From an uncultured virus (IMG/VR IMGVR_UViG_3300028840_004599) (lineage: Duplodnaviria; Heunggongvirae; Uroviricota; Caudoviricetes): a stretch of 64,000 nucleotides of DNA. Where the stretch lies: IMG/VR virus record IMGVR_UViG_3300028840_004599. One strand, 5' to 3'. The stretch's first letter is position 1, and every line of letters starts with the position of its first letter. A program made the position numbers and the translations under genes. The notes beneath the pieces were generated by a model. It was not told the DNA's origin, ran no database searches, and was given only the letters and a program-made list of their open reading frames with translations. Shown piece after piece: positions 3,004-64,000 of the stretch.

Positions 3004-3229
3004 GCGGTTTTTATTTGCCGTGATTATAGTTGTACTCTCGGGTGCTTTGACTGCTTTTTCGTGTTACTTAATTAGGGGTTCCCTCACACCAGAGATTGCT
3101 CTTGACATATTAAAATGGTTTTTCGGTAATTGTTTAGCTGTGGGTGGTACGTTTCTTGCGTTACAAACAATTACAGATTATCGGGGGGTAACACACAGTG
3201 AGAGGAAAACCAAAACCAAAGAGGCGTGA
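2984..3229 (+). CDS. Two-TM membrane protein, holin-like
   Basis: GGAGG SD before ATG 2984; two hydrophobic helices and basic C-terminus. Confidence 0.5.
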   Translation: MGSLVGKRFLFAVIIVVLSGALTAFSCYLIRGSLTPEIALDILKWFFGNCLAVGGTFLALQTITDYRGVTHSERKTKTKEA

Positions 3230-9794: not shown

Positions 9795-10070
9795 ATGAGG
9801 AAACAAAACGTGGTTAAAGTTGTGGCAAATTGCATCATGTTGGCATTAATCTTGCTCTTATTATCAGCATGTGTTACATCTCAGGTAGAGTATGAAAAAG
9901 GGGATACAAAAGTGAAGGTCACTTATACATCATGGAAGAAGATATCATTAAGGCATACAGACCCAATAAGTGGGGCAATTACAACGCTGGATTCCAACCC
10001 CGATCCCTGGGCGAACTTAATCAAGGACGTGTTCCAAGCGGGTTTTGATGCCGGAAAGGCAGTCAAGTAG
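9795..10070 (+). CDS. Lipoprotein
   Basis: Signal peptide with LLSAC lipobox. Confidence 0.7.
   Translation: MRKQNVVKVVANCIMLALILLLLSACVTSQVEYEKGDTKVKVTYTSWKKISLRHTDPISGAITTLDSNPDPWANLIKDVFQAGFDAGKAVK
9840..9856 (+). promoter_or_regulatory. Possible sigma-54 promoter (intragenic)
   Basis: TTGGCATTAATCTTGCT fits TGGCAY-N5-TTGCW but lies inside a coding region. Confidence 0.35.
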
Positions 10071-19458: not shown

Positions 19459-19478
19459 ACTGTCCGAAAATCGTACAC
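19459..19478. promoter_or_regulatory. Quasi-palindromic site TGT(A/C)CGA-N3-TCGTACA, also at 26306-26325 and inverted at 28830-28849
   Basis: Three 20-bp copies differing by 1-2 nt. Confidence 0.75.
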
Positions 19479-23320: not shown

Positions 23321-23402
23321 GGTACTTCTCCTCTCGTTCCTATTTCGTTTATTTCGTTACATCTCTAACTCTGAGTGATTGCCAGACACACACAAAGTTG
23401 CT

Positions 23403-25124: not shown

Positions 25125-25352
25125 AATAATTCTCCCTTCAATTTTTTAAATTTTTAAATACAAAAGTGATTGCAATATACCCACAAAAGTACACATACAT
25201 ACAGCACTGTCACACTGTGCCACATTGACACAGCATCAATTATGTGTCAATTTGCACCATTTAGGATATGGGGTTTCTAAGAACGCTATAGATTCGTGTA
25301 TCCCTTGGTTTCCTTAAAGAGAAATCTCCATAGCTTTCAATGTGGTTTAGGC

Positions 25353-25384
25353 AAAAAAAGAAAAAGGGGAGTGTTGAACTCCCC
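25353..25384 (-). terminator. Intrinsic terminator
   Basis: GGGGAGT/ACTCCCC hairpin followed on minus strand by long T tract, just after the 25390 stop. Confidence 0.8.
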
Positions 25385-25389
25385 ATATA

Positions 25390-26208: not shown

Positions 26209-26350
26209 TTTTAACTCTCCTTTTTTTAAATTTTAAATTCAAAAGTGATTGTGAAATAAACACAAACACACAATTACACACACACAAATAAACTGCTTCC
26301 CAAGCACTGTACGAAAATCGTACACATGTCAGGGGCAGGAAGCCCCCCCC

Positions 26351-26611
26351 TTACCCAAAATAGATTTCCACCAGACGGTCAGTTTCTTCCTCATCTGCCA
26401 CATCGTCGTTTTTGTGCAAATACGCGAATTGGGATGCTTCCTCTTCACATATTGGGCGTACATCCCAGTCTCCAAATCTCTCTCTGTTTCGGGTCAAAAC
26501 GTAATATTTGCCCTCATATAGATAGAGGGTTTCCATGTAGGGGCTTACGGGATCATCGCTGCCCACAAACCCACAAATCTCGTGACCGTCGTCGATTAAT
26601 TTAGTTTTCAT
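26351..26611 (-). CDS. Acidic hypothetical protein
   Basis: AGGAGATATTAAAAATG leader. Confidence 0.65.
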   Translation of the reverse strand: MKTKLIDDGHEICGFVGSDDPVSPYMETLYLYEGKYYVLTRNRERFGDWDVRPICEEEASQFAYLHKNDDVADEEETDRLVEIYFG

Positions 26612-26780
26612 TTTTAATATCTCCTTTTTTTAAATTTTTAAATATAAAATTGTGTGGAAACAACGAAAGCATTTGTTCTTGTGTTTCATACATTTTTAAC
26701 AATCTCCCTTCTTTATTTTTATATTTGGTTACACTTTGGAACCAAACATCAAAAAGAAAAAGGGAGCTATCCCTTATTCG

Positions 26781-26954
26781 CTAATAAAACAAAACAAGCT
26801 CCCTGGAATTGTCAAGGTTGACATGACGCTCCCCTTTTCGGATTGCGTCTAAGATGCCCTCTTTGTGATCCTCAAACACCTCGCGGAAAATACACGGGAT
26901 GAGGGTTTTTTCGCCCTTAAACCGTTTATAGATTTCGCACAGTCTAACACTCAT
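26781..26954 (-). CDS. Small hypothetical protein (57 aa, not in ORF track)
   Basis: GGAGG SD; MSVRLCEIYKRFKGEKTLIP...RELVLFY. Confidence 0.55.
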   Translation of the reverse strand: MSVRLCEIYKRFKGEKTLIPCIFREVFEDHKEGILDAIRKGERHVNLDNSRELVLFY

Positions 26955-26987
26955 GTTTATTTCCTCCCTTCGTTATCTCGCTTTAAC

Positions 26988-27689
26988 TTATGCATATCCT
27001 ATACCAAAGCATCTTTTTAGATAATTTTCCACTTCCCCGGCTATTCGGCTTTTCCAGTTTTGCCACATATCCCCATCGATGTAAAGCAGCTCAACAAATG
27101 TGCGTATTCGCCTTTGGTACAACACAGACAAAAGAAATTGTGTGGAAACAACTTGTTTCTTGATGCATCGTTTGAGATAACGCCTTAAACGTCCTTTTTC
27201 CCCTTTATCCAGGGGAATCTCATAATAATATGATTCCATCTCCTCTTCTTTTTCGCCTTGAGGAAATTTGTCATACTGTTTGATGACATTACAATATTGC
27301 TTGATCAGGGTTTTGATCTCGTCTTTTTCCCTGTCGTTTTTTCGTGGGTTTAAAACGTTTCCTTCCCGGTCAATCCTTATTCCATCGTAAAAGATTGATT
27401 CCGGTCCGGTTTTGTTTCCGTTCTTGTTCCATACATACCAGATTCCCTGTTTTTGTTGGATTATTACCCGAGTTTGAAATCTGTTGATCCTATCCTTGGT
27501 TGTGGGTGTGTACCAGTCTCCAGTATTCAATGTCATAATACCGGTTTTCTTATTGACGGAAATGACATCCGTTTCATGGAGACGAATACACTCCTTTCTT
27601 AGCGTTTTATACCAAATGGTATTATTCGCCACAAATTTGGATTTAATGGGGTTTAATTCCCCTAAGATTTCGCTTTTTCGTTTTTTCAT
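26988..27689 (-). CDS. Conserved phage hypothetical protein
   Basis: LHETDV..LNTGDWYTPTTKDRIN; start moved to 27689 by shared leader. Confidence 0.7.
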   Translation of the reverse strand: MKKRKSEILGELNPIKSKFVANNTIWYKTLRKECIRLHETDVISVNKKTGIMTLNTGDWYTPTTKDRINRFQTRVIIQQKQGIWYVWNKNGNKTGPESIFYDGIRIDREGNVLNPRKNDREKDEIKTLIKQYCNVIKQYDKFPQGEKEEEMESYYYEIPLDKGEKGRLRRYLKRCIKKQVVSTQFLLSVLYQRRIRTFVELLYIDGDMWQNWKSRIAGEVENYLKRCFGIGYA

Positions 27690-27768
27690 TTTTAATATCT
27701 CCTTTCGTTTTTTAAATTTTAAATTCAAAAGTGATTGTGATAGTAGCACAAAGGCATACTCAACAAGC

Positions 27769-28092
27769 TCACTCATCGCTAATTGAAACGGCATCTAAAA
27801 ATTTATCCCAAGCATCATCGCCATAGCAATCGATTGCCATAGCAATGAACTCATAACGCGTATCGCCGATGTCGTCGTCAAAATCGTCAATATCGTTAAT
27901 AGTATCTACCAGGACGTCATCCGCATCGCCATAACCCGAAAACCCCTGGGTTTTGGCGTTGCATGTATCATCAGCCCGATGCCAGTAAACATCGCAACCG
28001 TAACCGGTATCACCTCGTTTGTGGTCAAACCAGTCCCAAATAGCACCGAAATACTGAGACAGTAGCTCGATGGTTTTGTTTTTTTTATTCAT
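27769..28092 (-). CDS. Acidic hypothetical protein
   Basis: GAGGAG SD before MNKKNK. Confidence 0.6.
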   Translation of the reverse strand: MNKKNKTIELLSQYFGAIWDWFDHKRGDTGYGCDVYWHRADDTCNAKTQGFSGYGDADDVLVDTINDIDDFDDDIGDTRYEFIAMAIDCYGDDAWDKFLDAVSISDE

Positions 28093-28145
28093 GATAAATC
28101 TCCTCGTGATATAATTCTGCATTTCTTTACTGAATCTCTACAATC

Positions 28146-28364
28146 CTAGTAAACCATAACCTTGAGATCAGGTGTGATGCCGGTCCTTGTACCATTGGGC
28201 AAGATTGCATCATCCGTGATCCCTAACTCCCCACTGCAATCACAATCCATAGACCCACACAGTGTGAGTTTCAACTTCTTCGCTTGTCCAGGCGATATGG
28301 TATTCCCCCGAACCATAATTGTGCATTTTGATTTGTGATACCGGTTTTCAAACGTTACTTTCAT
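28146..28364 (-). CDS. Hypothetical protein, first gene of leftward block
   Basis: Shared leader; LCGSMDCDCSG. Confidence 0.65.
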   Translation of the reverse strand: MKVTFENRYHKSKCTIMVRGNTISPGQAKKLKLTLCGSMDCDCSGELGITDDAILPNGTRTGITPDLKVMVY

Positions 28365-28678
28365 TTTTAATATCTCCTCTCATCTATTTAATTTGACCAA
28401 AACAACACAATAACAATCACACAACGCACCACACTTGTCAAGCTCTGGATACGTTTTTTTTCATTTATTTGTACGTTTACATCACGTACATACAAGATAT
28501 TGTACACACTGGTTATGTATGTACTATATGTACTGTATGTGGATAAAATAAATACATGCACAAGACAAGGTAATTCAACATTGTGTGTGTTTCATGCATG
28601 ATTGCACAGTGTGATATTTTAACTATGCGAGGAATTATACAAACTTATTAAGACTTGCCTTTAGTTGTAGTTTGGCTT

Positions 28679-28976
28679 TGTGCGAAAATCCGCACGATTG
28701 CACAATAATTGTGCAATATACCTTGTATTACTAGGTATGCCATATTTTGACGTTTTTCAATGGGTTTTAGTGTACACGATTGATATCCCTGGATATCTGC
28801 ATCATACAAATCTTATGCACTGGGGGGGAGTGTACGAATTTCGGACAGTTGGTGTAAACATAAGCGATGCTTGCCCTCACGAATTTTTCAGGTATTTTCC
28901 ATCGGGCTTTGTGCCTATTTTCGCACATCCTTAAAATCTCGCCTCCCGATAACGCAGAAATGCATCATTTTGTTGC
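28679..28976. promoter_or_regulatory. Array of palindromic, enhancer-like binding sites
   Basis: 28679-28696 and inverted copy 28910-28927; TTGCACAATAATTGTGCAA 28698-28716; TGTACGAATTTCGGACA 28831-28847. Confidence 0.65.
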
Positions 28977-28990
28977 CCTTTTTCCTACTT

Positions 28991-29007
28991 CTGGCATGAT
29001 AATTGCG
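28991..29007 (+). promoter_or_regulatory. Sigma-54 (-24/-12) promoter
   Basis: CTGGCATGATAATTGCG, correct GG-N10-GC spacing, intergenic, heads rightward operon. Confidence 0.7.
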
Positions 29008-29024
29008 TAATACCTACCATCGTG

Positions 29025-29179
29025 TAGCAAACATACAAAACCCCCGAGGGAAGGAGAACCGGCAGTCGTGTATATTCGCCAATCGTCCATCAATGAGAAT
29101 CGTAAGGACTTGGAGTGTTCGTTATTTTACCTCCTGGCTGCCGTTCTCTTCCTTCTCCTAGTGTGTCTCTCGATTGCTA
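29025..29179 (+). ncRNA. Candidate rod-shaped RNA / structured leader
   Basis: Nested complementary segments: TAGCAA/TTGCTA, ACATAC/GTGTGT, 29049-29067 with 29136-29152, CCAA/TTGG, GTCC/GGAC. Confidence 0.5.
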
Positions 29180-29357
29180 TTCCTGAAAATCCATTTGTAT
29201 AGGAGTACGTTGTGGCTCATATTATTGATCTTCTATCTCATTTTGGGGACATCTTCTATCACGAGGTATACAAGGATACCCTGATTGTTTGACGTTGGTA
29301 GGGATTAGAAGACTATTAAAGCATATAAAGTCAGAATAAAATATAGGAGGAAAGAGT

Positions 29358-31493
29358 ATGTATGACATGATTATGGGGGGTAAATACCTCCGGATTGGGT
29401 GGAGTGCGAAGCCAGATGGGGCTTGGGAAGGGAGAATATTGGAACAGATGTGCCGTGGTGAGGCAGCTATTCCTGATGGTTTGTTTGAATTCTCCGTACC
29501 TGAGAACCCTATAAGCATACGATCTGTAAATGCTCCCCAGATTACCAAATTTGTCCTCTACATACGAGGTAGAGACAAGAATCGGGATAATAGTATTCTC
29601 CGCATCCAACCTAGGGAAAGCTCTGATATTTCCCACGTTGCCAAACTTGTGAGTGCGTACAATCAGGCAATGGCCACTATTGAAACCCGTTCCGAAGAGA
29701 TCGTGGTAGGTGGTGAATACCTCAAGATATCCTGGAAACGCTTGCCCTGTACATCCCGGGAAGATAAATGCTACGTCGGCAGGGTAATTGACCAGACATA
29801 CCGTTGGGAGGACTTTTACCCAATAGCAAAGAAAGGACATAAGTGGTATTTTAATCCCAAGATACAAACTTCTGCGGTTGGTGATGTAATAGTACACATG
29901 AAATCTGTTGACCTTCCCTCCATCGAATCCATATCAAAAACCCGGATACTCTTTGATGTACGGGGAAAACACGTTGATCGTGACGACGATGAATTTCAGG
30001 CAACCGACCACGAATTCTGTATAATTAACGAGGCAATCAATAAGTATAACAGCAATATGGAACAGTACTTCGGTGGGTACGTGGGTAAGGAATGTGGTGG
30101 CAAGTACCTAAAGATTATGTGGGATCAGCGTGTCCCCGGCAGGTACTGTGGTGTAATTCAGCAGCAGATGTACGTTCGTTCCAATTTTAACAAACCTCTC
30201 AAGCTTCGTGAACCCGATATTGATACAAACGTCTACTTTAGCGAAACCATGTACAAGTGTAGCAGTATATGTATTTGTTCCGGCAGATCACCAGGTGTTC
30301 GTAAAGATGAAAACGGTGACATTATCCTCGACGTGATCCGTGAAGATGACGTATCCGACGTATCCGCGAGTGAGTACACATTCGATGCCCCCGAATACCT
30401 TATCCCTTTTCTATCCGAAGCTATCGAACAGTATAACAAGTACATGGCGAAGGAGTTGGAAAGGGAGGAGGAAGTTGTTGGTGGTGATTATCTGAAGGTC
30501 AAATTCACCCCCATACCCAATTCTGTTGATTGGGAAGCTGTAATATTGAAGCAAAAGCACAGAATGGGTAGCTTTTATCCCCCCAGCATATCCAATTCGC
30601 TTGAGTTCGTAGCATCTAATGGGTACTCCTTGCGATCATGTATCTGGCCTGCCGTGTCCCAAGGGGAGAAGCTTTTCTATGTTCGTGGCAATTCAACCGG
30701 TAGTGATTATGATGAACTGTTCGTTCCCAACATTATGTACCCATTTATGAAAGCAGCTATTGAGGAGTACAACCAGAAAATGCTCGAATACGAGCGCACA
30801 CACAAGGAGAAAGTTGTAGTAGGCGGTAAGTGCCTCAAGATCGAATTTACCCGAGAAGCCAGTCCCGATGCTTGGGATGGCAAGGTATTATGTATGGATG
30901 TTCCGGATACTATCAGGTACAAAAACTTTACCGTTCATATGACAAATGGCGATACTTACACCACCTATGCAAATCTTGAGCCTTGCCAAACAATCACCTG
31001 GGCATGGTATAATCGCAAAATGGAGCCCGATTTAAAAGGTTTCCCAGGAACGGGGAAGGCATTCTTCCTCAAGCTCCCCACTTCCGCACTTGAGTCACCT
31101 TTGTTCAAACTCCCGGCTTCTTATCTCTCCGGTGTCGTCCTCCTTATCCGACGTTATAACGAGTATGTGGAGGCAGAAATTGCTAGGTTGGAAAAAGAAA
31201 GGGAGAGGAAGAGCAGTAATGAGGAGGAGGAAGTTACTTTGTCTGATATAAAAGGTGTATTCGCGTACCTTGAACATGCGGAGGCAGAAATTGCCAGGTC
31301 GGAAAAAGAAAAGGCAGAGAAAGAAAAGAGGGAGAAGGAAGCCAAACGGGAAGAGGTTTTGGATCGGCTTAGGTACGCTGAAGCGGTATATGACTTCCCG
31401 GCAGACCCCTTTCTCCTTTGTAATCCAGAAGTCATTAAATATGCGTGTAAGACATGGGTGAAAGTTTGTAAGGAGGCGAAAAATACAGAATGA
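29358..31493 (+). CDS. Protein of five tandem ~120-aa domains plus coiled coil
   Basis: Repeats start GG.(Y/C)L(R/K)(I/V).(W/F) and end ..(A/L)(I/V)..YN. Confidence 0.8.
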   Translation: MYDMIMGGKYLRIGWSAKPDGAWEGRILEQMCRGEAAIPDGLFEFSVPENPISIRSVNAPQITKFVLYIRGRDKNRDNSILRIQPRESSDISHVAKLVSAYNQAMATIETRSEEIVVGGEYLKISWKRLPCTSREDKCYVGRVIDQTYRWEDFYPIAKKGHKWYFNPKIQTSAVGDVIVHMKSVDLPSIESISKTRILFDVRGKHVDRDDDEFQATDHEFCIINEAINKYNSNMEQYFGGYVGKECGGKYLKIMWDQRVPGRYCGVIQQQMYVRSNFNKPLKLREPDIDTNVYFSETMYKCSSICICSGRSPGVRKDENGDIILDVIREDDVSDVSASEYTFDAPEYLIPFLSEAIEQYNKYMAKELEREEEVVGGDYLKVKFTPIPNSVDWEAVILKQKHRMGSFYPPSISNSLEFVASNGYSLRSCIWPAVSQGEKLFYVRGNSTGSDYDELFVPNIMYPFMKAAIEEYNQKMLEYERTHKEKVVVGGKCLKIEFTREASPDAWDGKVLCMDVPDTIRYKNFTVHMTNGDTYTTYANLEPCQTITWAWYNRKMEPDLKGFPGTGKAFFLKLPTSALESPLFKLPASYLSGVVLLIRRYNEYVEAEIARLEKERERKSSNEEEEVTLSDIKGVFAYLEHAEAEIARSEKEKAEKEKREKEAKREEVLDRLRYAEAVYDFPADPFLLCNPEVIKYACKTWVKVCKEAKNTE

Positions 31494-33275: not shown

Positions 33276-33299
33276 TTGGTGGTGTTCAGTGGGGCTCTG

Positions 33300-33362
33300 C
33301 CCCCCTTCCCCCACACCCCCTACCCCCTATATATTATATATATATATATTATTATATATTAC
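33300..33362. other. C-rich tract followed by (TA)n tract; candidate origin unwinding element
   Basis: CCCCCCTTCCCCCACACCCCCTACCCCC then about 35 nt of pure A/T. Confidence 0.45.
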
Positions 33363-33375
33363 TAGGGGGAGTATA

Positions 33376-33549
33376 GTGTTTTTACTCGGTAAAGCTCACG
33401 AATTAACCAAACAGCTCGAATCCGACCTCCCAAAGACAGAGAAGAGCCGTATTCGTTACCACCTTAGCCGTATTCAGGATGTTCTAAATGGCAAAATAAC
33501 AGAGGAGCAGTATAACAGGGGCAGAGGTCGCCCGAGGAAGGAGCAGTAA
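33376..33549 (+). CDS. Small AT-hook protein
   Basis: GGGGGAG SD before GTG 33376; C-terminal RGRGRPRK. Confidence 0.65.
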   Translation: MFLLGKAHELTKQLESDLPKTEKSRIRYHLSRIQDVLNGKITEEQYNRGRGRPRKEQ

Positions 33550-34082
33550 TGGCAAGTAGTAAAAAACAAGGTAAAAAGGGGGATTATAACCCCGATGAGT
33601 TCGTAGTGCCCGCTACGGATGCCCGTGGAAATAGCGAACGTGTTAACCTCCGTATGTCCCCTATGTACCTGGCTGCCATGCAGGATATACTCCAATCCAG
33701 GCTTTTCCCGTATAGAACCATACAGGATGTAATACGGGATGCTGTGAAAAGACACCTCCGCTACCTAAGCACCTTGGACACTTCTATAACATCCCTTATG
33801 GGACAGATACAGGCTGTAGACAACATAGTCTGTGCCAACATTCGTCAAATAGAGTTCATGCGTAGCGTAGAGGACATGAAGAAGACCGTAGCATCCCTCC
33901 TGAAAGCAGGAGCCAACGAGGAAGCTGTATCTGTCCTAGCTAACGTAAAACACGAGGTGGAGAAGATAAAGAATAAGTTCTTCCGTGAACACTTCCTGGC
34001 TGCGATACAGCCGTTGTATGAAAAAGCCTCCAAGTCTTCCAAGTCCGTGAAGGTTGGCAAGAAAAGAAAGGTTAAGGAATAG
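33549..34082 (+). CDS. RHH-domain regulator with helical C-terminus
   Basis: ERVNLRMSP..YRTIQDVIRDAVKRHL. Confidence 0.65.
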   Translation: MASSKKQGKKGDYNPDEFVVPATDARGNSERVNLRMSPMYLAAMQDILQSRLFPYRTIQDVIRDAVKRHLRYLSTLDTSITSLMGQIQAVDNIVCANIRQIEFMRSVEDMKKTVASLLKAGANEEAVSVLANVKHEVEKIKNKFFREHFLAAIQPLYEKASKSSKSVKVGKKRKVKE

Positions 34083-34083
34083 T

Positions 34084-35637
34084 ATGAGGTTGAAGATATG
34101 GAATGGGGAAACAGTTATAGTACCATTGCGACCGCAGGAACTAGACATATCGGACAAGTTTCAAGAGTGGAGAGCCAGCCAGTGGGAAGCTATCCATGAT
34201 GCTCTTACGTCCAAAAAACGTTTCGTGGTGCAGTCTCAACCAACCGGCTCTGGCAAATCATTAACTTATTACACCATAGCCAAGGTATTAGGGAAGCGTG
34301 TGTGCATCTTAACCTCCACCAAAGCCCTACAAGACCAAATAGCCAAAGATTTCCCAGTAGCAGATATTCGTGGTCAAAATGCCTACAAGTGCCTCCTCAC
34401 TGGCGACTCTGCCAACTATGGACCCTGTCGAATGGGGTATGATTGCCCTCGTACCCGTACCTGCCCATACATACGCCAATACCGGGCAGCTCTTAAAGCC
34501 AGCATAGTTCTCACAAACTACTCCTATTTCATAACCATTAATAGGTTTGGCAGGGGTCTTGGCAAGTTCGATTTGCTTGTATGTGACGAAGCGCATAACA
34601 TACATACACAATTGTGCAACGCAGCAACAATATCTATCCGATCCGATCTCCTATCCACCCCGCCAGATGAGTCCGATCTGACCGCGTGGGCTTTGTATGA
34701 GGGGGGCAAGATAACAAATAGGATAGATAGATTACATTCCGAGTTCAACCAGGATACGACTGATTTTGATAAACCCCTGTTGCGTGAGATATCAGATCTC
34801 AAAATAGCTGAGCGGGGGTTGGAAACAGTACGTTCCCACGCGGATGACTGGTTACTTGAGAAATCTAAAGGCTCCTGCGTATTTACACCCGTTTGGGCTG
34901 GTGAGTTGTCCGAGGAGCTTCTTTTTTCGGGAATACCCAAAGTTATAACCATGTCAGCCAATATCTGCCAGAAGTCCTTATCTCTCATAGGTATCAAAGA
35001 TTACGACTATTTCTCATACAAGCACACATTCCCCTTACAAAACAGGCTGGTGTATCATATTCCTACAACTCGTGTTGATTTCCGCATGAGTAGTGCTCAA
35101 TTTGACACATATATGAAGCGTGTGGATGAGATAATCGAGTCACGATTGGACAGGAAGGGCATAATACACGGGGTTTCTTACAAACGTTGCCAGCAAATCA
35201 TGTCCAAATCTCGTTTTAAAAAGTACATGATTACCCATTACAAAAACAATCTTGCAGAGGTTGTGGAGCGGTTTAAAAACTCAACAGCTCCCAGTATCCT
35301 GATATCCCCATCAATTGTGGAGGGGTACGATTTCCCAGGCGACCAGTGTTATTGGCAAATAGTGGCAAAAGTGCCATTCCCTGATACTCGTGGAAAGCTA
35401 ATGGCGTTGAGGAAGAAGAGCGATCCAGAGTACCCAAACTACATCGCAATGCAAAAATTCGTCCAAGCGTGTGGTCGTGGTGTCCGTTCCCAGGATGATG
35501 TTTGTGAAACGTTCATACTAGACGATCACATGTTTTGGTTTTTCCGAAGATTCCAAGAATTTGCACCAGATTGGTTCTATTTAACAACAATTCGGTACAA
35601 TCCCACACCAGTTGGCATAAAAATTGCTGTAAAATAG
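34084..35637 (+). CDS. DinG/XPD-family SF2 helicase (probable Fe-S)
   Basis: Q motif, PTGSGKS, Cys cluster ending CPY, DEAH, SA, EGYDFPGD, KVPFP, QACGRGVRS..D. Confidence 0.9.
   Translation: MRLKIWNGETVIVPLRPQELDISDKFQEWRASQWEAIHDALTSKKRFVVQSQPTGSGKSLTYYTIAKVLGKRVCILTSTKALQDQIAKDFPVADIRGQNAYKCLLTGDSANYGPCRMGYDCPRTRTCPYIRQYRAALKASIVLTNYSYFITINRFGRGLGKFDLLVCDEAHNIHTQLCNAATISIRSDLLSTPPDESDLTAWALYEGGKITNRIDRLHSEFNQDTTDFDKPLLREISDLKIAERGLETVRSHADDWLLEKSKGSCVFTPVWAGELSEELLFSGIPKVITMSANICQKSLSLIGIKDYDYFSYKHTFPLQNRLVYHIPTTRVDFRMSSAQFDTYMKRVDEIIESRLDRKGIIHGVSYKRCQQIMSKSRFKKYMITHYKNNLAEVVERFKNSTAPSILISPSIVEGYDFPGDQCYWQIVAKVPFPDTRGKLMALRKKSDPEYPNYIAMQKFVQACGRGVRSQDDVCETFILDDHMFWFFRRFQEFAPDWFYLTTIRYNPTPVGIKIAVK
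35612..35628 (+). promoter_or_regulatory. Sigma-54 (-24/-12) promoter
   Basis: TTGGCATAAAAATTGCT, 38 nt upstream of the 35667 start. Confidence 0.7.
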
Positions 35638-35666
35638 CATGATGACTAAATTAAGGAGGAAAAGGT

Positions 35667-36377
35667 ATGACAGAGGGTAACAAGGTTCCTTTGAATCAGT
35701 TTAAGCGATCCGGGTTTCTGGATGGTGTGGAGGCTACCATCACAAATGCCAGATTCGTGTTCTTCGCGTTCCCTACTGCGGGAAAGCAAGCGTGCTTAGA
35801 GGTCACGTTTGTTCCGAAGCAGGAAATTCGTAATCTCAGACCCCAGATGTACAAGGTTGGCGACCCTGCATCGTTCGTGCCATCGGAGAACGGAGATGAA
35901 CTTATCTCCCCGACAGGCGCACAAATCCACGAAAACACGAAGTTCGGAGTTTTTATTACCTCTCTCTACGATGCAGGGTTTGATGGAGAGCTTAAGACAA
36001 TCTCCGAAATCAACGATCTTAAAGTACGCTTGAAATCCGTTCCCAATTCCCAGATTTGGGGCGGAAGCGGAAACACGCAGATGAGCAAAGGCAACACGAT
36101 CCTTATTGATGAAATTCTTGGTGATGATAGCGCGCCTACAAAGGGTGGTGGGGAAGTTTCCAAAGTCGAAGACGTTGCCAAGCTGACCATCCTTGAAATC
36201 CTTGAAGCATCCGGAAAGCCGATGAAGAAATCTCATGTGGTGCTCAAGGCAAATAAGGCTGAGTTTGCGTCGCCAGCAGAGCGCAATTTAGTACTCGATC
36301 TTGTTGGCTCTGACGAGTTCCTTGCCAGTTCGGATGAGTGGAAGTTTGAAAACGGCATTCTCTCCCTGGAGGAATAA
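35667..36377 (+). CDS. Replication-module protein, possible ssDNA-binding protein
   Basis: Position before Sak4-like ATPase, strong SD; no firm motif. Confidence 0.45.
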   Translation: MTEGNKVPLNQFKRSGFLDGVEATITNARFVFFAFPTAGKQACLEVTFVPKQEIRNLRPQMYKVGDPASFVPSENGDELISPTGAQIHENTKFGVFITSLYDAGFDGELKTISEINDLKVRLKSVPNSQIWGGSGNTQMSKGNTILIDEILGDDSAPTKGGGEVSKVEDVAKLTILEILEASGKPMKKSHVVLKANKAEFASPAERNLVLDLVGSDEFLASSDEWKFENGILSLEE

Positions 36378-36438
36378 TTCCTCCTATTCTCGTCCTACTT
36401 TGTTGGTTTGCATAGTGGTGGTTCAATCCTATGCGCTT

Positions 36439-36478
36439 GGGGAGGGAGTTATCCCTTTCAGCTCCCTCCCACTCTTTC
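36439..36478 (+). terminator. Hairpin / weak terminator
   Basis: GGGAGGGAGTT pairs with AGCTCCCTCCC, followed by ACTCTTTC. Confidence 0.45.
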
Positions 36479-36493
36479 TACTAGGAGATTTTA

Positions 36494-37315
36494 ATGGATG
36501 AAAAGAAACTTGCGTCTGTCGGGTTTGAGAAGACAAAACCCGACACCGAAAGAGCTTGGGTAATTTCAATATCCGGGGAAACATCTTCGGGCAAGACAAC
36601 GTTCGCGCTTACCGCGCCAAAACCCCACGCCTTTTTTAACTTCGACCATGGGGAAGCCAGAGCCATTTCAGGTATCAAAGACAAACTTGACGTTGATAAG
36701 GATGGCAACATTGACGGTTTATACATAAAAACCTTCTACCCGCCCTCTGTGAAAGTCTCCAGCAGGTTCTCTGGTAATGTAAAAAGCCCGCTACGTGAGG
36801 ACAGTGGAGGTGTTCAGGAAGACAATATCAAGAATTTTGTTCCTCTGTATAGGGATTTTAACGAGGCGTACAATGCCGTTCTTTGTTCGGGGTTAAAATA
36901 TGCAACTATTGATGATGGTGGTGATCTCTGGGAAATTGTTCGCCTCGCCTACCTGGGTCAAGTTACCGAGGTGATGCCACAACACTACGTGGAGGTGAAT
37001 GCAGTGTGGAAATCCATTATTCAACGTGCCCGGTATCGTGGCGTGAATCTAATAATTACCCACAAACTGAAAGATGTCTATGTCGGAAATAGTTGCACAG
37101 GGGAACGCACGTTGGATGGGTTTTCCAAAGACAACTTCCTGTCAGATATTTCCCTGCTTACAAGCTGGGATAAGAAAAAAAAACAACCCGAAATCCTCAT
37201 CACGAAGTGTGGACCCAACAAAGAGCTCGAGGGAATAACGATCTCGGGCGACATGTGCACATATACCATGCTTAAAGCACTCATTCTCGACTGTGACCCG
37301 GAGGACGTTACCTAA
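36494..37315 (+). CDS. P-loop ATPase, Sak4/AAA_24-like
   Basis: GETSSGKTT, FDHG, TIDD, IITH. Confidence 0.75.
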   Translation: MDEKKLASVGFEKTKPDTERAWVISISGETSSGKTTFALTAPKPHAFFNFDHGEARAISGIKDKLDVDKDGNIDGLYIKTFYPPSVKVSSRFSGNVKSPLREDSGGVQEDNIKNFVPLYRDFNEAYNAVLCSGLKYATIDDGGDLWEIVRLAYLGQVTEVMPQHYVEVNAVWKSIIQRARYRGVNLIITHKLKDVYVGNSCTGERTLDGFSKDNFLSDISLLTSWDKKKKQPEILITKCGPNKELEGITISGDMCTYTMLKALILDCDPEDVT

Positions 37316-38037
37316 TGCCACTTTATATAGATAACCGAATGCATGAAAAGACCAAACTATTTCCACTATTAAAAGACATCGCCGAATTAGCCAGGTTGGA
37401 GTTCGGCGATGTTTCCTTTTCTGGCAATGGCGAGGATAACGCACGAATACTGATCGGTGTGGAGCGTAAAACCCTCCCTGACTTCCTCCACTCATTTACT
37501 AGTGGCAGACTCGCTGGACACCAGATACCTGGGATGCTCAATTCCTACAATTACGTGTATTTGATAGTAGAGGGTATTTGGCGACCCAATCCAAAATCCG
37601 GAACAATGCAGGTAAAGCGTGGAAAGGCTTGGGCAGACTTGCGATTGGGCAAACGAAAGTACTCTTACCGCGAGTTCGTATGTGCCCTGAACACCCTTAC
37701 AATAATCTCAAACGTACACGTAGTAACAACACACTCTATTCGCCAAACAGCTCTATACATCCGTAGCCTTATCCACTGGTGGAATTCAAAGAAGTACAAC
37801 GAGCATAGAGCTCACTTGGCTTTTCAGAATACCCCGCCGATAACCTACAACAAGCCCGGTCTGACTCGTAGGCTGGCAAAAGAGCTGCCAGGAATTGGGT
37901 GGAAACGCTCTGCTGAAGTAGCCAAAGTCTTTAAAACACCCAGGGGTCTAATAAACTCAGAATTGTCACAATGGCTAGGTATCCCCGGAATCGGAAAGTC
38001 CATAGCCTCCAAGGTAATGGAGGAAATTAGTCAATGA
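37315..38037 (+). CDS. ERCC4/XPF-family nuclease with HhH motifs
   Basis: IDNR, GDV, VERKT..DF..S...GRL..Q, LIVEG, LPGIG/IPGIG. Confidence 0.88.
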   Translation: MPLYIDNRMHEKTKLFPLLKDIAELARLEFGDVSFSGNGEDNARILIGVERKTLPDFLHSFTSGRLAGHQIPGMLNSYNYVYLIVEGIWRPNPKSGTMQVKRGKAWADLRLGKRKYSYREFVCALNTLTIISNVHVVTTHSIRQTALYIRSLIHWWNSKKYNEHRAHLAFQNTPPITYNKPGLTRRLAKELPGIGWKRSAEVAKVFKTPRGLINSELSQWLGIPGIGKSIASKVMEEISQ

Positions 38038-40754
38038 CGTCGTGGATTGATGAAAACTGTGCTTTGTGTGATCTTTGCAAGAATAGAAAGAACGTAGTCC
38101 CTGGGAAATGGGCTAGGGGTTCGGGTATACTTCCAGAAGGAATGGATACTTTTGTTGTTGGGGAGGCTCCAGGCGTCAACGAAGATTTAACCGGTGAGTG
38201 TTTTGTTGGGAAAACAGGAGAAGAGTTATTCAGTAATTATCTGAAGCAGGGTGGAATAGACCCGAACACATGTTATTTCACGAACATAGTCAAGTGCCTC
38301 CCCACTTCCCAAGATAAAAAACCGAAGAAAGAGCACATAGATGCTTGCAAACCTTATCTATGGAAAGAACTCGAATCCGGATTGCCTCGTTACATAATAG
38401 CGATGGGTAGCACAGCATCCAAGTTCTTCCTCGGCGCAAACCACAATGTCGAACGTGCGCATGGCAATGCGTTCAATGTGGAGATTCCCCTGCCCTCTGG
38501 AAAGCTCCAATGCGCGGTAATAGTCACGTACCACCCAGCAGCCGGTCTACACACCACCTCCATTATGCAGGAGATATACGAAGATTTTGTGTTCGCTGGA
38601 AAGGTAATTCGTGACGGGTTGCTTGAAAGGAGCACTATACCCGTTGACCGGTATGCCAAGGAGGAAAATTATCGTAAAATAACTACAGTGTCCGAATTAG
38701 AAGACGTGTTCAGACCAGATATACCCAAAATAGCTTTGGATACGGAAACGGTATCTGGAGAACCATACTGCTTATCGTTTTCCCAACATCCTGGAGAGGC
38801 ATTTGTTATCTTCCAAAGTAATTCAGACGTATTATCCGCACTTAATCAAAATATCTTAGAAAACAGCTTGATTAGTATTTTGCACAATGCTACATTTGAC
38901 TTGCCAGTTTTGGAAAAGATGGGTGTGAAAATAGCTAATTTTGTTGATACTATGTCAATGGCATACTTACTTGGCAACAAACCCAAGAAGTTAAAGCTAT
39001 TAGCATATCGCATAGCTGGTATGCACATGCACATGTACAGTGATATATTGAAAATGGGCGATGCGAGAAGGATACAAAGATACCTGCTTGATGCTTGTCG
39101 CGAAGAGTGGAAAGACGCCCCTATAAAAATATCAGGGTGGGAACCGCGGTCCAATGTCAAAGAAAAAACCGTAGTCAAGCGTATGGAGCGTTTGGACTCC
39201 GTTGGAATGCTTACAAAGGACGTGCTTGACCGGATGATAAGCAAAGGCGAGGTTCCACGGGTAACACAAGCGCGAAATATAGGCAACAAAGCTGAGGCAT
39301 ACTTTATAAAATCTTGTGATAATCGCGAGAATCCATACTCGTTGTGGAATAGCACAAAACCCGAAGATGGTCGGGAGGAGGTGGAAAAGGTTCTCGGGAA
39401 GATGCCAGAACCAAGTCTGCTCGATGTTCCCGAAGACGTAGTTATCCGCTATAGCGCACGCGATGCTGATGCCACATTTAGAATTTACCCAATACTCGCG
39501 GAGGAGATACGAGAGTTTGGTTTAGAGGACACGCTCTATAGGGACATGGGGACAATCCCCATGATTTGTGATATGGAGCAGAGAGGAATCCTAGTAGACT
39601 TGAACCATTTTAAGCATCTTTCCGAGAAATACGGGGAGGAGCTTGCCAGTATCGAGGCAGAAATTAACAAGATAGCTGGATGGGATGTCAATGTCCGTTC
39701 TACTAAAGATTTACAACAGCTCCTATTTGTGGATTTGGGATTAGAACAGGTAAAAACAACAAACAAGGGGAACATATCCACAGATATGGAAACACTTACA
39801 ACATTACAAGGTTCACACAGTGTTGTAGATTTGTTATTACAGTACAGAAAGCTTCACAAGCTAAAGTCCACCTACATAGACTCAATACCAAAACACGCGG
39901 ATTCGCGTAGCAGAGTTCATAGCAGGTTCTCAATAACGCGAACTGAAACTGGCAGGCTTGCCTCCTCGGAACCCAACCAACAAAACCAACCAAAGCGCGG
40001 GGAGGGGGCAAAAGACATACGTAGGGGATACATAGCTCCCCCCGATTACTCTTTCGTATCTGCCGACTATTCGCAGATAGAGCTTCGTGTCCTGGCTCAT
40101 ATCTCAAAAGACCCGTCTCTATTACAGGCGTTTAACAACAATGAGGATGTCCACAACAAAACAGCTTGTGACATATTCGGAGTCTCTTCCCCAACGAAAT
40201 CCCAACGACGCGTAGCAAAGACCGTAAACTTTGGTGTTGTTTATTGTATACAACCAGACGGGTTGCAAAGGAAGCTATTTGAAATAGGGATAGATTGGGA
40301 TGTGGATAAGTGTTCGGAATTTATAGCGGACTATTTCAAACTGCGCCCAGCTGTCAAAAAATATATTGAGTCTACTAAGGCTTATGCTAAACGAAACAAG
40401 CTGGTACGTGATATATTTGGCAGAATCCGATACATACCGGAAGTTCGTAGCGCACATTATTGGATACGGGAAGCTGGTCTTCGTCAAGCAGTAAACACTC
40501 GCATACAGTCATCTGCACAAGGCATTATCAAAGAGGCAATGAGGCGAATGATACCCGCCTACAGGGGGCTTGGGAACGTTCACCCCCTGATACAAATACA
40601 CGACGATTTACTATTTGAGGTCGAGGATAGGCTACTAAGGGAATTCATATCGAAGCTATCCCACACCATGAGTATGGCTGTGACGTTGGTAGTGCCAACA
40701 CCCGTCTCGGTAGAGGTTGGTAAGAATTGGGGAGATATGGAGGAATGGAAATGA
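38034..40754 (+). CDS. polA: Family A DNA polymerase fused to N-terminal family-4 uracil-DNA glycosylase domain
   Basis: CALCDL, VGEAPG, TNIVKC, YHPAA; ExoI DTET, ExoII HNATFD, ExoIII YSARD; DYSQIELR, KTVNFGVVY, QIHDD. Confidence 0.95.
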   Translation: MTSWIDENCALCDLCKNRKNVVPGKWARGSGILPEGMDTFVVGEAPGVNEDLTGECFVGKTGEELFSNYLKQGGIDPNTCYFTNIVKCLPTSQDKKPKKEHIDACKPYLWKELESGLPRYIIAMGSTASKFFLGANHNVERAHGNAFNVEIPLPSGKLQCAVIVTYHPAAGLHTTSIMQEIYEDFVFAGKVIRDGLLERSTIPVDRYAKEENYRKITTVSELEDVFRPDIPKIALDTETVSGEPYCLSFSQHPGEAFVIFQSNSDVLSALNQNILENSLISILHNATFDLPVLEKMGVKIANFVDTMSMAYLLGNKPKKLKLLAYRIAGMHMHMYSDILKMGDARRIQRYLLDACREEWKDAPIKISGWEPRSNVKEKTVVKRMERLDSVGMLTKDVLDRMISKGEVPRVTQARNIGNKAEAYFIKSCDNRENPYSLWNSTKPEDGREEVEKVLGKMPEPSLLDVPEDVVIRYSARDADATFRIYPILAEEIREFGLEDTLYRDMGTIPMICDMEQRGILVDLNHFKHLSEKYGEELASIEAEINKIAGWDVNVRSTKDLQQLLFVDLGLEQVKTTNKGNISTDMETLTTLQGSHSVVDLLLQYRKLHKLKSTYIDSIPKHADSRSRVHSRFSITRTETGRLASSEPNQQNQPKRGEGAKDIRRGYIAPPDYSFVSADYSQIELRVLAHISKDPSLLQAFNNNEDVHNKTACDIFGVSSPTKSQRRVAKTVNFGVVYCIQPDGLQRKLFEIGIDWDVDKCSEFIADYFKLRPAVKKYIESTKAYAKRNKLVRDIFGRIRYIPEVRSAHYWIREAGLRQAVNTRIQSSAQGIIKEAMRRMIPAYRGLGNVHPLIQIHDDLLFEVEDRLLREFISKLSHTMSMAVTLVVPTPVSVEVGKNWGDMEEWK

Positions 40755-40981: not shown

Positions 40982-41414
40982 TATCATGGGACGAGAAACG
41001 GATGGGATAACTACGGTAGACGAGTTGGAAACAAATCTTAAAGGGGAAGAGAGACACAAACTTGGCGGCGTCGACGAGGGTTTTGTTTTGATTGAGGAAC
41101 TATTAAAAGTGGAAAAGAGAGAGAAGTATCTCAGAACACGGATACAGCGTATATTTTCCAATATACTAATCCGATGTTCTCTCAAATCTATTTCTAATGG
41201 GAAGTACGACGTTTTTCTTGAGGAAACCAGACACGAGGAGTACGATATTGAACACCTGAAAACATTGTTGAGGTACAATTTTAATATTACCAATGAAGAG
41301 ATACGTGCAATTATAATGCCATGCTTAACACTGGTTACTGATGAGAAGGTCGTGTTTCGTCCTGTGAGGAGTAACAATGCACAATTACAAAGTGCTGGCA
41401 ATTGCAATTCTTGA
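40965..41414 (+). CDS. Hypothetical protein
   Basis: Packed ORF; likely start 40986. Confidence 0.6.
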   Translation: MNAGGNIMGRETDGITTVDELETNLKGEERHKLGGVDEGFVLIEELLKVEKREKYLRTRIQRIFSNILIRCSLKSISNGKYDVFLEETRHEEYDIEHLKTLLRYNFNITNEEIRAIIMPCLTLVTDEKVVFRPVRSNNAQLQSAGNCNS

Positions 41415-59262: not shown

Positions 59263-59279
59263 AGCAAGAATCGTGCCAG
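59263..59279 (-). promoter_or_regulatory. Sigma-54 promoter, antisense to tail operon
   Basis: CTGGCACGATTCTTGCT is a full match to YTGGCACG-N4-TTGCW. Confidence 0.7.
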
Positions 59280-61171: not shown

Positions 61172-64000
61172 TGGGTCAAGCAGGATGTTCATATGGGTTT
61201 GCAACGAAGCTAGTGCCCCCGATAAATATTGATGGGAAACAGTATACACTTTTGGTTCGTTTCCACGATTACCCATCATTGGGTAATGATGATGAGATAG
61301 TATCTGGTGAGATAGAATCAGTTGTGGATATCGGCGGTGGTTACAAGAAAATTGTGTGTGCGTTGGGCAGATATTATTTTTCTCAAACTCATGTGCTCGG
61401 TGCTGGCAACTCGTATGAGGAAGTAGTAATGTATTATGCTGGTGGAAACATTTGTATAGCACCTGAACCTGCCATAGGCTCATATTGTTACTCGGATGCG
61501 AAGGCAACTACGGGACCCAACTCCGCAAATCGGGCACAGGACGGGCACACTCTTATATGGAATAATAAGAAGTTTCTTATAACAAAAGCCTTAGCATTTC
61601 ATGAAGCTCCAGATAGTATTAGCTGGCAACTTGGCAATAGATCACAAGGGGAGCGTATAACAGTTGGGTTGGTTGGAGAGGATGATTTTAAGGGTTGGCA
61701 GTTCCCGTTAAGCACTTATAATGCAAATGATGTGGCAATAGATACGACACTTGGTGACATATACGACGATGCAGGAATAACGTGGGAGGACACAGCTGTT
61801 GAGTCCGGTTCGTGTTCACGAAAGATTTTTTTGTCATCCCCTGACTATTTCCCATCGGATGCTTGTTTGGACTTTGCAGAGTTTTGGTACGACCCAATAC
61901 ACTACGGACTTCGTTTTTGCTCTACCAACGCTCTTCGCGCCGGTGATAGCAAGCCCTGGAGTGATGTAGACCTGCTCAAAGTGACTTGGTATGCGCGGGA
62001 TATACAAGGTGAGATGACGTTAGGCACGACAAAAGTATTTGCGTTCGAGGGTGACGGTGATGGTTTATCCGATTCCGGCGATAGTATAGCGACAATATTC
62101 GATACCGTAGAGAGACCAGACCCATTTGCTCTCCATAGTCAGCAGATTACTATTGGCAAGTCTATTGGTAGTGAATCCGGCTTGATGTGGCGAGAAGATT
62201 ATTCTGCCGATTCTCCATTTATTGCTTGGGTTTATGACGAGGACGGAAATGTTACACTTAAATATAGATTGTTGCAGGGAGGATCAATATCATCCAACCC
62301 TGTATCGGGTACTCACCCAATCCCGGTAACACTAAAGCTTGAGGAGATATCCGCAGGCACAATCAGGGCATGGTATGATGTGGGGGCTGGTTTTGTCCTT
62401 CATGATACAATCTCGCTTGATCTCACATATTCGTGGTTTGGTGGTGTGTTTGGCTCCTCTGGCTCTTCAATACGGGCATATTTCAACGCAGATACCGATG
62501 TTGAGGTTCTGCCCGTAGGCACAAATTCTGATTCTGGTGTTTTGTCATATCGTCTTGATAATGAGGTGTATACGCCATATGCCACAAAATGGTATTGGGA
62601 GCACGATAAGCCGTTTACAGGGGATATAGAAGAGATACGCAACGTATCAGCAGATGTGGATATGACATTGGTTGTTACGGGAACAGACCTACAACGGGAT
62701 ACGTACATGATATCCGGGAGCACACTAATATTTAGTCAAGAAGCATTCGGTGATAGTGTAACAGCAACATATGATAGTGATGAATCTTTGTCTGCCCCGG
62801 GAAGATGCCCAGGCGGACCAAAGAACTTTTCAAATGACGATGGTGTGGTTGAGCACAATATAGGTCAATATCGGGATTGTCTATACGTTTATGATCCAAA
62901 TGGGGAGCTTACGGCAATAGGCGGTGAGGACTTTTCTGTGATAACCAGTTCGGGGTTTGATCCTAGGACAACATTTTCATTGTATTATGACGAGGAAAAC
63001 AACGCAAGTACGGATTTTACACAGATACCGGATGGGTCTCTTATAAAAAATGCCTTGTCACGCTATGTATTGGTTGAGGATGTTTGGGTGGAAAGCAACA
63101 TATTTGCCAATAAACGATATTGTTTTGAAGGTGTTGGTTCAAGGTTTGTACGATTTAATGGTGCGTCCCCACGTTACCTTAATGAGGCTCGGGACTGCAT
63201 ACAGACATTAAATACTTGTCGTGTGTCTATAACACAGGGAGATGGTGCTCATATTTGCGGGGAAGGACAGATGTACCCGGTTCCCACTACACGTTTTTGT
63301 GATGAGGAGGGCAACAATGTATGGGGAGGGTGGACTGTGGGCGTTACCGGTGCGCATGTTGATAGAGAAAAAGCGAATGCGTGGTTTCAAAAACGGTCTG
63401 GAACCCGGTGGTTTCAGGCTTTTTCTTATTTCGGTAACAGGATAGCGACACCAGGAATCGTCCTCCCGTATGGGTGGATGGAGATTGATGGAGTTCCTGA
63501 ACAGGGCGATTTACATTACAATCTGGGTGGTATATGCCAAACGTATAAGGAGTATTATACGCAGTGCCCAGGGTTGGCTTTGCAGGGGATGTGTTCCGGT
63601 GGTGCGTTAAACCCTTCCGTGGGGTGGTGTTCTGACGGTTATTGCGGCGACCCACTTACACCCTCCGAATGGTATGAGGGTGATCGCGGTATCACCAATG
63701 CCATGGCGACATTTTTCGCGTGGGCTTCCACAGGGGGGCAAGATTTTTGTGGGTGCAATTACTACGAGAGTTGGGCGGTGGGACATGAGGAAATATCTCC
63801 AGAGTTTAATTTTACGCCTACGTATTTCCAGCCGGGAAATCGGTTGAAGAGAATGCTGGATAACACCACAATAAATTGGGCGAAGATGGAATTTGAGCTG
63901 AGTGGGGCTTGGCAACGGGTGAGAAACAAGGAATGGGATGCTACTGTTGTTGTGAACGATATTGATGGTATTGGGGAAAACTTCTCGTTCAGCCTCATGA
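61171..64000 (+). CDS. Very large tail-module protein, truncated by window end (not in ORF track)
   Basis: ATG overlaps previous TAA; MGQAGCSYGFATKLVPP...; frame open in all stretches I translated, including the last 800 nt. Confidence 0.75.
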   Translation, partial: MGQAGCSYGFATKLVPPINIDGKQYTLLVRFHDYPSLGNDDEIVSGEIESVVDIGGGYKKIVCALGRYYFSQTHVLGAGNSYEEVVMYYAGGNICIAPEPAIGSYCYSDAKATTGPNSANRAQDGHTLIWNNKKFLITKALAFHEAPDSISWQLGNRSQGERITVGLVGEDDFKGWQFPLSTYNANDVAIDTTLGDIYDDAGITWEDTAVESGSCSRKIFLSSPDYFPSDACLDFAEFWYDPIHYGLRFCSTNALRAGDSKPWSDVDLLKVTWYARDIQGEMTLGTTKVFAFEGDGDGLSDSGDSIATIFDTVERPDPFALHSQQITIGKSIGSESGLMWREDYSADSPFIAWVYDEDGNVTLKYRLLQGGSISSNPVSGTHPIPVTLKLEEISAGTIRAWYDVGAGFVLHDTISLDLTYSWFGGVFGSSGSSIRAYFNADTDVEVLPVGTNSDSGVLSYRLDNEVYTPYATKWYWEHDKPFTGDIEEIRNVSADVDMTLVVTGTDLQRDTYMISGSTLIFSQEAFGDSVTATYDSDESLSAPGRCPGGPKNFSNDDGVVEHNIGQYRDCLYVYDPNGELTAIGGEDFSVITSSGFDPRTTFSLYYDEENNASTDFTQIPDGSLIKNALSRYVLVEDVWVESNIFANKRYCFEGVGSRFVRFNGASPRYLNEARDCIQTLNTCRVSITQGDGAHICGEGQMYPVPTTRFCDEEGNNVWGGWTVGVTGAHVDREKANAWFQKRSGTRWFQAFSYFGNRIATPGIVLPYGWMEIDGVPEQGDLHYNLGGICQTYKEYYTQCPGLALQGMCSGGALNPSVGWCSDGYCGDPLTPSEWYEGDRGITNAMATFFAWASTGGQDFCGCNYYESWAVGHEEISPEFNFTPTYFQPGNRLKRMLDNTTINWAKMEFELSGAWQRVRNKEWDATVVVNDIDGIGENFSFSLM

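Follow-up and report, generated by a model that had tools for sequence, protein, structure and literature searches.

The window analysed here is a 64-kb stretch of a 67,121-bp contig from a tailed phage (~43% G+C), whose sequence came from sediment and seawater metagenome runs. A tyrosine integrase (at 3198) and DNA methylases are encoded in it (87 ORFs scanned). Two arms of genes diverge from a 993-bp gap (28365-29357): a leftward arm, and a rightward arm that starts at 29358 and carries a helicase, a Sak4-like ATPase, an ERCC4 nuclease and a UDG-fused DNA polymerase A, followed by terminase, portal and head genes. Within the gap sit a sigma-54-type promoter box and an array of dyads upstream of it (Table 1). 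The GC-skew change at 28.5-29 kb was considered as a sign of an origin and rejected, since the skew tracks gene strand. Elsewhere, a 184-aa ORF (17972-18526) gave a weak AimR-like Pfam match (E = 0.0018) under the cut-off.

The first long gene of the rightward arm encodes a protein with several VVGGxYLKI-type repeats and a charged C-terminus, residues 1-230 of which gave no usable Atlas match. The 177-aa RHH-like protein further along had tblastn matches in 53 of 125 loci, some of them overlapping, and an Atlas CopG/RHH lead of 0.87, under the 0.9 bar. A short ORF directly before its gene (33289-33549) ends in an AT-hook-like RGRGRPRK.

Table 1. Features of the window, in order of position; dyad centres are relative to the predicted transcription start.
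Feature	Position	Strand	Remarks
Sigma-54-like box, TGGTACG-N4-TTGC	3144..3160	+	54 bp before tyrosine integrase
Tyrosine integrase	3198-4436		No homologue at E <= 1e-20 among 4346 candidates, query itself aside; integrases rare in clade
Sigma-54 box	9840..9856	+	Inside 91-aa ORF, 233 bp before next gene
tRNA-Met (CAT)	19019-19095		Near convergence point of two arms
Element B, TTTGTG-N7-CACAATCACTTTTG	19397, 21847, 23375, 25166, 26245, 27731	-	Often runs into A-rich tract and RBS
Dyad A, copy 3	19461..19477	.	End of leftward arm, 44 bp upstream of B element; no credible sigma-54 box within 450 bp
Leftward arm	19493-28364	-	Small orphan genes
80-aa RHH-like ORF	19755-19997	-	Weak PHROG regulator match, E = 0.002; sigma-70-like promoter of its own; candidate A- or B-binding protein
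Dyad A, copy 2	26308..26324	.	Leftward arm, 43 bp upstream of B element; no credible sigma-54 box within 450 bp
Possible sigma-70 promoter, leftward arm	28413..28441	-	TTGACA, 17 nt, TGn-GATTGT; weak -10; read from sequence, below scan threshold
AT-rich tract with TGTAC and TGT(A/G)(C/T) half-sites	28450..28680	.	6 TGTAC vs 0.49 expected; 17 TGTRY vs 2.6
Dyad C1, DctD-type site	28679..28696	.	Centre about -330; 231 bp (22 helical turns) from C2
Dyad D, NtrC-like, TGCAC-N7-GTGCA core	28697..28717	.	Perfect 10-1-10 palindrome; centre -311
21-bp dyad	28718..28738	.	Centre -290; 21 bp from dyad D
Dyad GATATC-N4-GATATC	28782..28797	.	Centre about -228
Dyad A, TGT-N11-ACA, TGTACGAATTTCGGACA	28831..28847	.	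Centre about -179; one of three window copies
Dyad C2, DctD-type site	28910..28927	.	Centre about -99; 64 bp from TGGCA
Sigma-54 (RpoN) -24/-12 box CTGGCATGATAATTGCG	28991..29007	+	GG 28993-28994, GC 29005-29006
Predicted transcription start	29018..29019	+	From sigma-54 geometry, 12-13 nt past -12 C
Terminator-like hairpin, leftward transcripts	29041..29057	-	Just downstream of promoter; weak: 8 found vs 5.0 in shuffles
44-codon ORF	29068..29202	+	RBS, hydrophobic segment; likely first product; no family at curated cut-off
26-codon ORF	29212..29292	+	RBS; putative
711-aa protein, first long gene of arm	29358..31493	+	Internally repetitive; no family or fold match
177-aa RHH-like protein	33549..34082	+	Candidate phage regulator; conserved before helicase in clade
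Replication block	34054..40754	+	DinG-like helicase, 236-aa ORF, Sak4-like ATPase, ERCC4 nuclease, UDG-fused DNA polymerase A
Second sigma-54 box	35612..35628	+	55 bp before 236-aa ORF; without own dyad array
Antisense sigma-54-like box	37875..37891	-	In ERCC4 gene; 10/13, may be chance
Antisense sigma-54 box	41306..41322	-	Near end of replication arm
Antisense sigma-54 box	59263..59279	-	Perfect 13/13; strong hairpin (z = -3.74) about 50 nt downstream
Antisense sigma-54 box	63094..63110	-	Inside long late-region ORF

The box at 28991-29007 agrees with the sigma-54 consensus at 11 of 13 positions with exact spacing, holds a GG-N10-GC core in YTGGCAC/T-N5-TTGCW, and accords with the TTGGCAT-N5-TTGCT motif of PMC6615313. 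It is intergenic and lies 77 bp from the 44-codon ORF with its RBS. The preliminary description had it heading the rightward operon; it does face that arm, but 367 bp and two short ORFs precede the first long ORF (29358). A scan against shuffled sequence, proposed in the same description, found exact boxes to be enriched: there are 7 copies of TGGCA-N6-TTGC in the window against 0.46 expected from 100 dinucleotide shuffles (none reached 7) and 0.95 from 60 order-4 Markov simulations (maximum 3). At the other 40 spacers from 0 to 40 the same half-motifs occurred 0-3 times each, so the enrichment is specific to N6. The excess was smaller with one mismatch allowed (25 versus 13.9 expected) and vanished for sites matching at least 10 of 13 consensus positions (18 versus about 15), indicating that only the best sigma-54 sites carry signal.

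One good sigma-54 box, not a packed decoy array, was found in 28365-29357, and shuffling of this intergenic region produced a box in 10 of 1000 cases. The promoter scan listed no sigma-70-like promoter for the rightward arm in 28930-29358. An IHF site between enhancer and promoter is common at such promoters and is not required; exact matching to the IHF consensus WATCAA-N4-TTR gave no hit in 28365-29357, where A/T tracts are present. The 343-nt leader folded no better than shuffles (z = -0.19) and the Rfam scan returned tRNA only, which argues against a riboswitch or structured leader. A 26-nt inverted repeat (77%) pairs 29008-29033, at the predicted transcript start, with 29282-29307, in the region before the 711-aa gene.

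All the elements that had been claimed upstream of the box were found in place, 64-312 bp from it. Under a TG..CA definition that was picked after the sites had been seen, so that the cluster statistic flatters the result, five dyads occupy the 340 bp upstream of the box (centres -99 to -330) against 0.30 per 340 bp window-wide; none of 3000 shuffles gave five, and nowhere else in the window are there four or more. As judged from sequence, the array thus supplies dyads in the interval 80-350 bp upstream in which those of a sigma-54 promoter would lie. Dyad D (TTGCACAATAATTGTGCAA at 28698-28716) is present in a single copy, and a perfect palindrome with 10-bp arms arose in 3 of 1000 shuffles of the 993-bp gap. 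The arms of C1 and C2 are 88% complementary, making the two an inverted pair, and neither C nor D occurs elsewhere in the window. The half-site TGT(A/G)CGA is common to C and A, whose main difference is a single spacer base. The clustering reported earlier is real and the only one in the window, but dyads of the A type also stand outside this promoter. Since A recurs before B elements with no credible box within 450 bp, it is not solely an enhancer of the 28991 promoter; being present also in the leftward arm, it is probably shared with another control layer.

Copies of element B (TTGTG-N7-CACAATCAC) precede leftward genes, except for one at the end of the arm that no gene follows; two of the copies lie 43-44 bp downstream of dyad A. 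An exact search of other viral contigs gave no match to B, and its reading as a plain sigma-70 promoter was rejected by eye because the -35/-10 spacing did not fit. Sigma-70-like promoters were found for the terminase arm and the gene at 19997, and use of sigma-54 appears restricted to the replication arm, and perhaps the integrase, rather than genome-wide. Of the seven exact boxes, four run opposite to the genes, which a plain promoter model does not explain. At 59185-59279 (minus strand), the perfect box is followed by a 17-pair hairpin that could end transcripts both ways, and a small RNA of ~60 nt is possible. A weaker sigma-54-like box at 27007 (minus strand, 10/13) lies 53 bp before a 57-aa leftward ORF at 26954.

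Next, the dyads were compared with known enhancer sites. C1 and C2 match the DctD consensus TGTGCGgaaatCCGCACA, which is rhizobial, at 16 and 15 of 18 positions, respectively (PMC11077940), a likeness overlooked in the preliminary description. The first 17 bases of C1 are those of a site before dctA in one metagenomic locus (L255). A metagenome scan for sigma-54 boxes with a C-type dyad 52-82 bp upstream returned at least 120 loci, 89 of them distinct among the matches listed; one of the 89 is this phage, and 27 have a DctA-like N-terminus downstream. The two DctA-like loci that were tested both proved to be DctA, with a sensor kinase and an NtrC-family regulator as neighbours in each case. 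Among the matches listed, the dyad-to-box gap at the 27 DctA-like loci was 62 bp in three cases and 71-75 bp in 24. The C2 gap of 64 bp is one helical turn short of this main class, and so fits in distance and phase. Gaps at the other 61 distinct matches listed were scattered, chance matches included. Natural dctA enhancers, among the matches listed, mostly have a second site ~30 bp away, which C2 lacks.

Dyad D agrees at 12 of 14 fixed positions, counted by eye, with the E. coli NtrC site TGCACCAnnnTGGTGCA (TGCACCA-N3-TGGTGCA; PMC8743547). The TGT-N10-12-ACA pattern is common to 15 of the 39 clostridial groups of enhancer-binding proteins (bEBPs) described in PMC6615313, and the Desulfovibrio DVU1419 and DVU3023 sites given in PMC4641369 resemble dyads C and A. 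As dyads of this generic Fis-type TGT..ACA pattern cannot be assigned to separate proteins, the names DctD and NtrC serve here as leads, short of membership in either regulon. Exact A, C and D dyads in unrelated viral contigs (36, 4 and 10 loci; n = 50) had no exact TGG(C/T)A-N6-TTGC nearby; these loci look like chance or unrelated matches, and a general phage enhancer was rejected. C plus a box in viral contigs gave five loci with scattered gaps and no second dyad, and was likewise set aside. One unrelated viral contig (L135:700-900) has tandem repeats, each with a D-type palindrome, and no sigma-54 box.

Sigma-54 holoenzyme is silent until an AAA+ enhancer-binding protein bound upstream opens the promoter. 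Neither GAFTGA nor any other bEBP motif was found in six frames of the window, and PF00158 was absent from the 87 ORFs scanned (64 kb of the 67,121-bp contig), confirming the earlier statement that the window encodes no GAFTGA AAA+ activator. Pursuit of the host through integrase homologues returned the query itself only at E <= 1e-20, and matches between genome contigs and the phage comprised nine contigs, all in unrelated MAGs. Two DNA runs searched over positions 1-20000 revealed no attachment joint or variants; they gave the same contig pieces and possibly represent one data set. As to parts of a lysis-lysogeny switch, the integrase is present, a CI-like repressor gave no match, and RHH-like proteins are the candidates.

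We then asked how widely this arrangement recurs. No close relative was found with a single helicase query, and none among cultured phages (best rows 24-38% identity). An alignment of 18 helicases retrieved 287 related viral stretches, and 80 of them were retained for analysis. Helicase identity to relatives is 44% at most, and no promoter alignment was possible; one record (G001) is identical to window positions 17999-60165, is therefore the same genome, and adds nothing independent. In the 80 stretches TGG(C/T)A-N6-TTGC occurs 44 times, as opposed to 5-25 times for 15 other spacers. Among 39 whole related records, chosen for length and including many fragments, TGGCAY-N5-TTGC occurs 50 times in 16 records, with 24 of the 50 in the arrays of G003 and G022, compared with two occurrences of the reversed pattern; 23 records, many of them fragments, have no such box. 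An RBS and ATG at 50-92 nt follow 15 of 79 correctly spaced boxes but 9 of 325 with other spacers (p = 2e-6; 125 loci).

The first box lies at the divergence of early genes and terS in 7 of 11 box-bearing records examined (G003, G008, G016, G017, G021, G034 and, only if its ends join, G022). First promoters (n = 10, the window's included) were richer in dyads than internal ones (n = 8; p = 0.0013), a comparison confounded by the first promoters being non-coding and often beside terS while the internal ones are coding. The first promoters of L093 and L036 did not exceed the background in dyads. Relatives vary in the motif that is repeated; at the first promoters of L026 and L037 the repeats resemble sites of the Desulfovibrio bEBP DVU0619 as given in PMC4641369. 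What recurs among the related phages is the box-plus-dyad design. PF00158 was found in none of the 39 related records, 12 near-complete ones among them, and HTH_8 matches in relatives were rejected as activators, being terminase small subunits or under the cut-off. An integrase is present in 2 of 16 related records (the seventeenth, G001, is the same genome lacking the integrase region). The window genes that are widely common to the clade amount to the replication core, with or without boxes.

Several relatives have box arrangements of their own. In L093:18550-19062 (G003), 14 exact same-strand sigma-54 boxes stand in tandem, often ~25 bp apart, right behind and antisense to terS and beside a GGGGGGTACCCCC run, with more boxes at 19651 and 19721. 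At a contig end, L037:527-936 (G022) has seven boxes in head-to-head pairs and then four GAACTGCGA(A/G)TTCCG repeats, followed by a promoter box that lies 86 bp upstream of the first gene. Back-to-back sigma-54 promoters in L128:3993-4382 (G010), 64-67 bp before their genes, share a gap rich in TGTATACA dyads. Eight TGAGACA/TGTCTCA half-sites lie upstream of a perfect box in L005:1060-1402 (G005); a likeness of these repeats to AcoR sites was not confirmed. Arrays beside terS could be packaging sites, but the window's array goes with the box and lies 13 kb away from the terminase genes.

How the box and its dyads are to be read was weighed among several explanations. In one, the box is incidental, GATAAT (28998-29003) acts as a sigma-70 -10 element and the palindromes are chance products of an AT-rich gap. 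GATAAT does match the -10 consensus at five of six positions, and about one of the seven boxes is expected by chance; but no -35 element lies at 16-18 nt, a TG extension is lacking, and the enrichment statistics leave this reading extremely improbable. A genuine sigma-54 promoter could instead be opened by an activator of the phage's own, non-PF00158 or encoded in the remaining 3.1 kb of the contig, that binds the dyads. Many ORFs are orphans, the dyads vary between relatives as phage operators would, and the Htm preprint proposes that a T4-type phage AAA+ protein lacking GAFTGA acts on sigma-54 polymerase (bioRxiv 10.64898/2026.10.06.757011). We nevertheless give this little credence: the AAA+ bEBP motif is missing from the window, the genes common to the clade and the HTH_8 matches offer no such protein, and the first box at the terS junction in 7 of 11 relatives faces early genes, before phage proteins could exist.

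The antisense boxes raise a different idea, in which boxes serve mainly as closed-complex roadblocks or decoys, the dyads act as origin or packaging sites or are bound as operators by phage proteins (RHH-like 19755 or 33549), and the replication arm is transcribed by other means. The G003 and G022 arrays of 14 and 7 clustered boxes, heading no clear gene, would suit this idea, as would the recurrence of A before B and the dense TGTAC half-sites at 28450-28680, and a repressive role of RpoN holoenzyme has been described in E. coli (PMC8743547). It is nonetheless quite unlikely, since sense boxes lie at promoter distance from start codons in window and clade, the promoter scan offered the rightward arm no sigma-70-like substitute, C and D are confined to this promoter, and C2 has the geometry of a real enhancer. 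Closer to the original proposal is a scheme in which at least three different host bEBPs (DctD-like, NtrC-like and a TGT-N11-ACA binder) have their own dyads, and carbon, nitrogen and other signals decide lytic growth. Three dyad types can be told apart, two of which agree well with sites published for different regulators; the spacing from C1 to D and on to the -290 dyad is ~20 bp; a sigma-54-like box precedes the integrase as well; and the source is sediment, with Desulfobacteria and Myxococcota carrying many bEBPs (PMC12316311). Of the original proposal, the promoter, its enhancer array and the need for an activator that the phage does not appear to encode are supported, but the plurality of activators is weakened by the half-site common to A and C and the generic nature of TGT-N10-12-ACA. 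The likeness of DVU1419 and DVU3023 sites to C and A means that names cannot be fixed, D is single and distant, A recurs where there is no box, and the integrase is rare among relatives, so that we regard the scheme as possible yet doubtful.

On balance, we favour 28991-29007 as a working sigma-54 promoter of the rightward arm, opened by a host bEBP at the upstream dyads. Host RNA polymerase with sigma-54 would sit on the box as a closed complex, and a host AAA+ enhancer-binding protein on the dyads would loop back, hydrolyse ATP and open the promoter. The best docking candidates would be the DctD-type pair of C2 and C1, and the NtrC-like D might provide a second input; the array would call for no more than one or two host activators. 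The bare box at 35612 and other internal boxes may share the enhancer from afar, an NtrC enhancer being effective over kilobases (PMC4641369). This reading draws on the motifs, their enrichment and geometry, the recurrence of the design in relatives and the lack of a detectable phage bEBP. Transcription, binding, which and how many activators act, the host and the consequences for the phage life cycle are inferred.

It is thus likely on sequence grounds that the replication arm has a host-activated sigma-54 promoter, and host state probably gates phage replication, DNA replication of the phage then depending on the signalling state of the host. A lytic-entry switch, as suggested in the preliminary description, is conjectural: what the promoter heads is the replication arm, sigma-70-like promoters serve the leftward and late arms, and, with an integrase in 2 of 16 related records, the trait of the clade is not a lysis-lysogeny switch. 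A promoter that needs an activated host AAA+ protein would tie phage replication to a host two-component signal with no sensor of the phage's own, and would be a simple way for the infection of slow-growing sediment bacteria to become nutrient-gated. The enhancer motifs could also help to assign hosts to uncultured phages. A bolder possibility, which we hold with considerable doubt, is that the clade, a widespread one of uncultured phages from sediment and soil, leaves it to sigma-54 enhancer proteins of the host to start infection, with a different regulator per phage and several stacked here (a dicarboxylate-type, a nitrogen-type and a third), so that replication and, via a second box, the integrase would answer to host nutrient signals in combination. 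If true, the enhancer motif would set host range too and be readable as a host-prediction barcode.

Host sigma-54 use by a phage has a precedent in Pseudomonas phage YuA, which depends on it for some transcription, the source passage naming no enhancer or activator (PMC10914365). This phage differs from YuA in that sigma-54 boxes stand before the replication arm here and before the first early genes in relatives. The sigma-54 promoters of YuA are said, after Ceyssens in 2008, to serve the structural and lysis region. Phage early or replication promoters are usually of strong sigma-70 or phage-polymerase types and unconditional. An enhancer array at such a promoter was not found in the literature searched, which included few subscription papers.

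In its sequence features the phage promoter is a sigma-54 promoter that resembles enhancer promoters of the dctA or glnA type. With rhizobial dctA (DctB/DctD) it has in common the 18-bp dyad, two sites per promoter and the helical phase of the proximal site, and V. vulnificus DctD targets, as described in PMC11077940, likewise pair a near site (-125 to -160) with a far one (-237 to -451). By contrast with rhizobial dctA, the phage promoter drives replication genes and lacks an adjoining activator gene, and its sites are 231 bp apart rather than ~30, with other dyads interspersed; the binder need not be DctD. E. coli NtrC promoters have a 17-bp TGCAC-N7-GTGCA dyad that D matches at 12 of 14 fixed positions, and glnAp2 has a tandem pair of NtrC sites. 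The phage has a single site at -311, beyond the typical UAS distance of 100-250 bp (PMC6615313). Deltaproteobacterial and clostridial bEBP enhancers described in PMC4641369 and PMC6615313 resemble it in that several dyads lie 100-300 bp ahead of a TGGCAT-type box; the DVU3023 sites (PMC4641369) exceed dyad A in length by one base. Unlike the phage, those systems usually have the activator gene adjoining its target and a single motif type repeated. The parts are of the textbook kind, and the novelty lies in their use on a phage replication arm.
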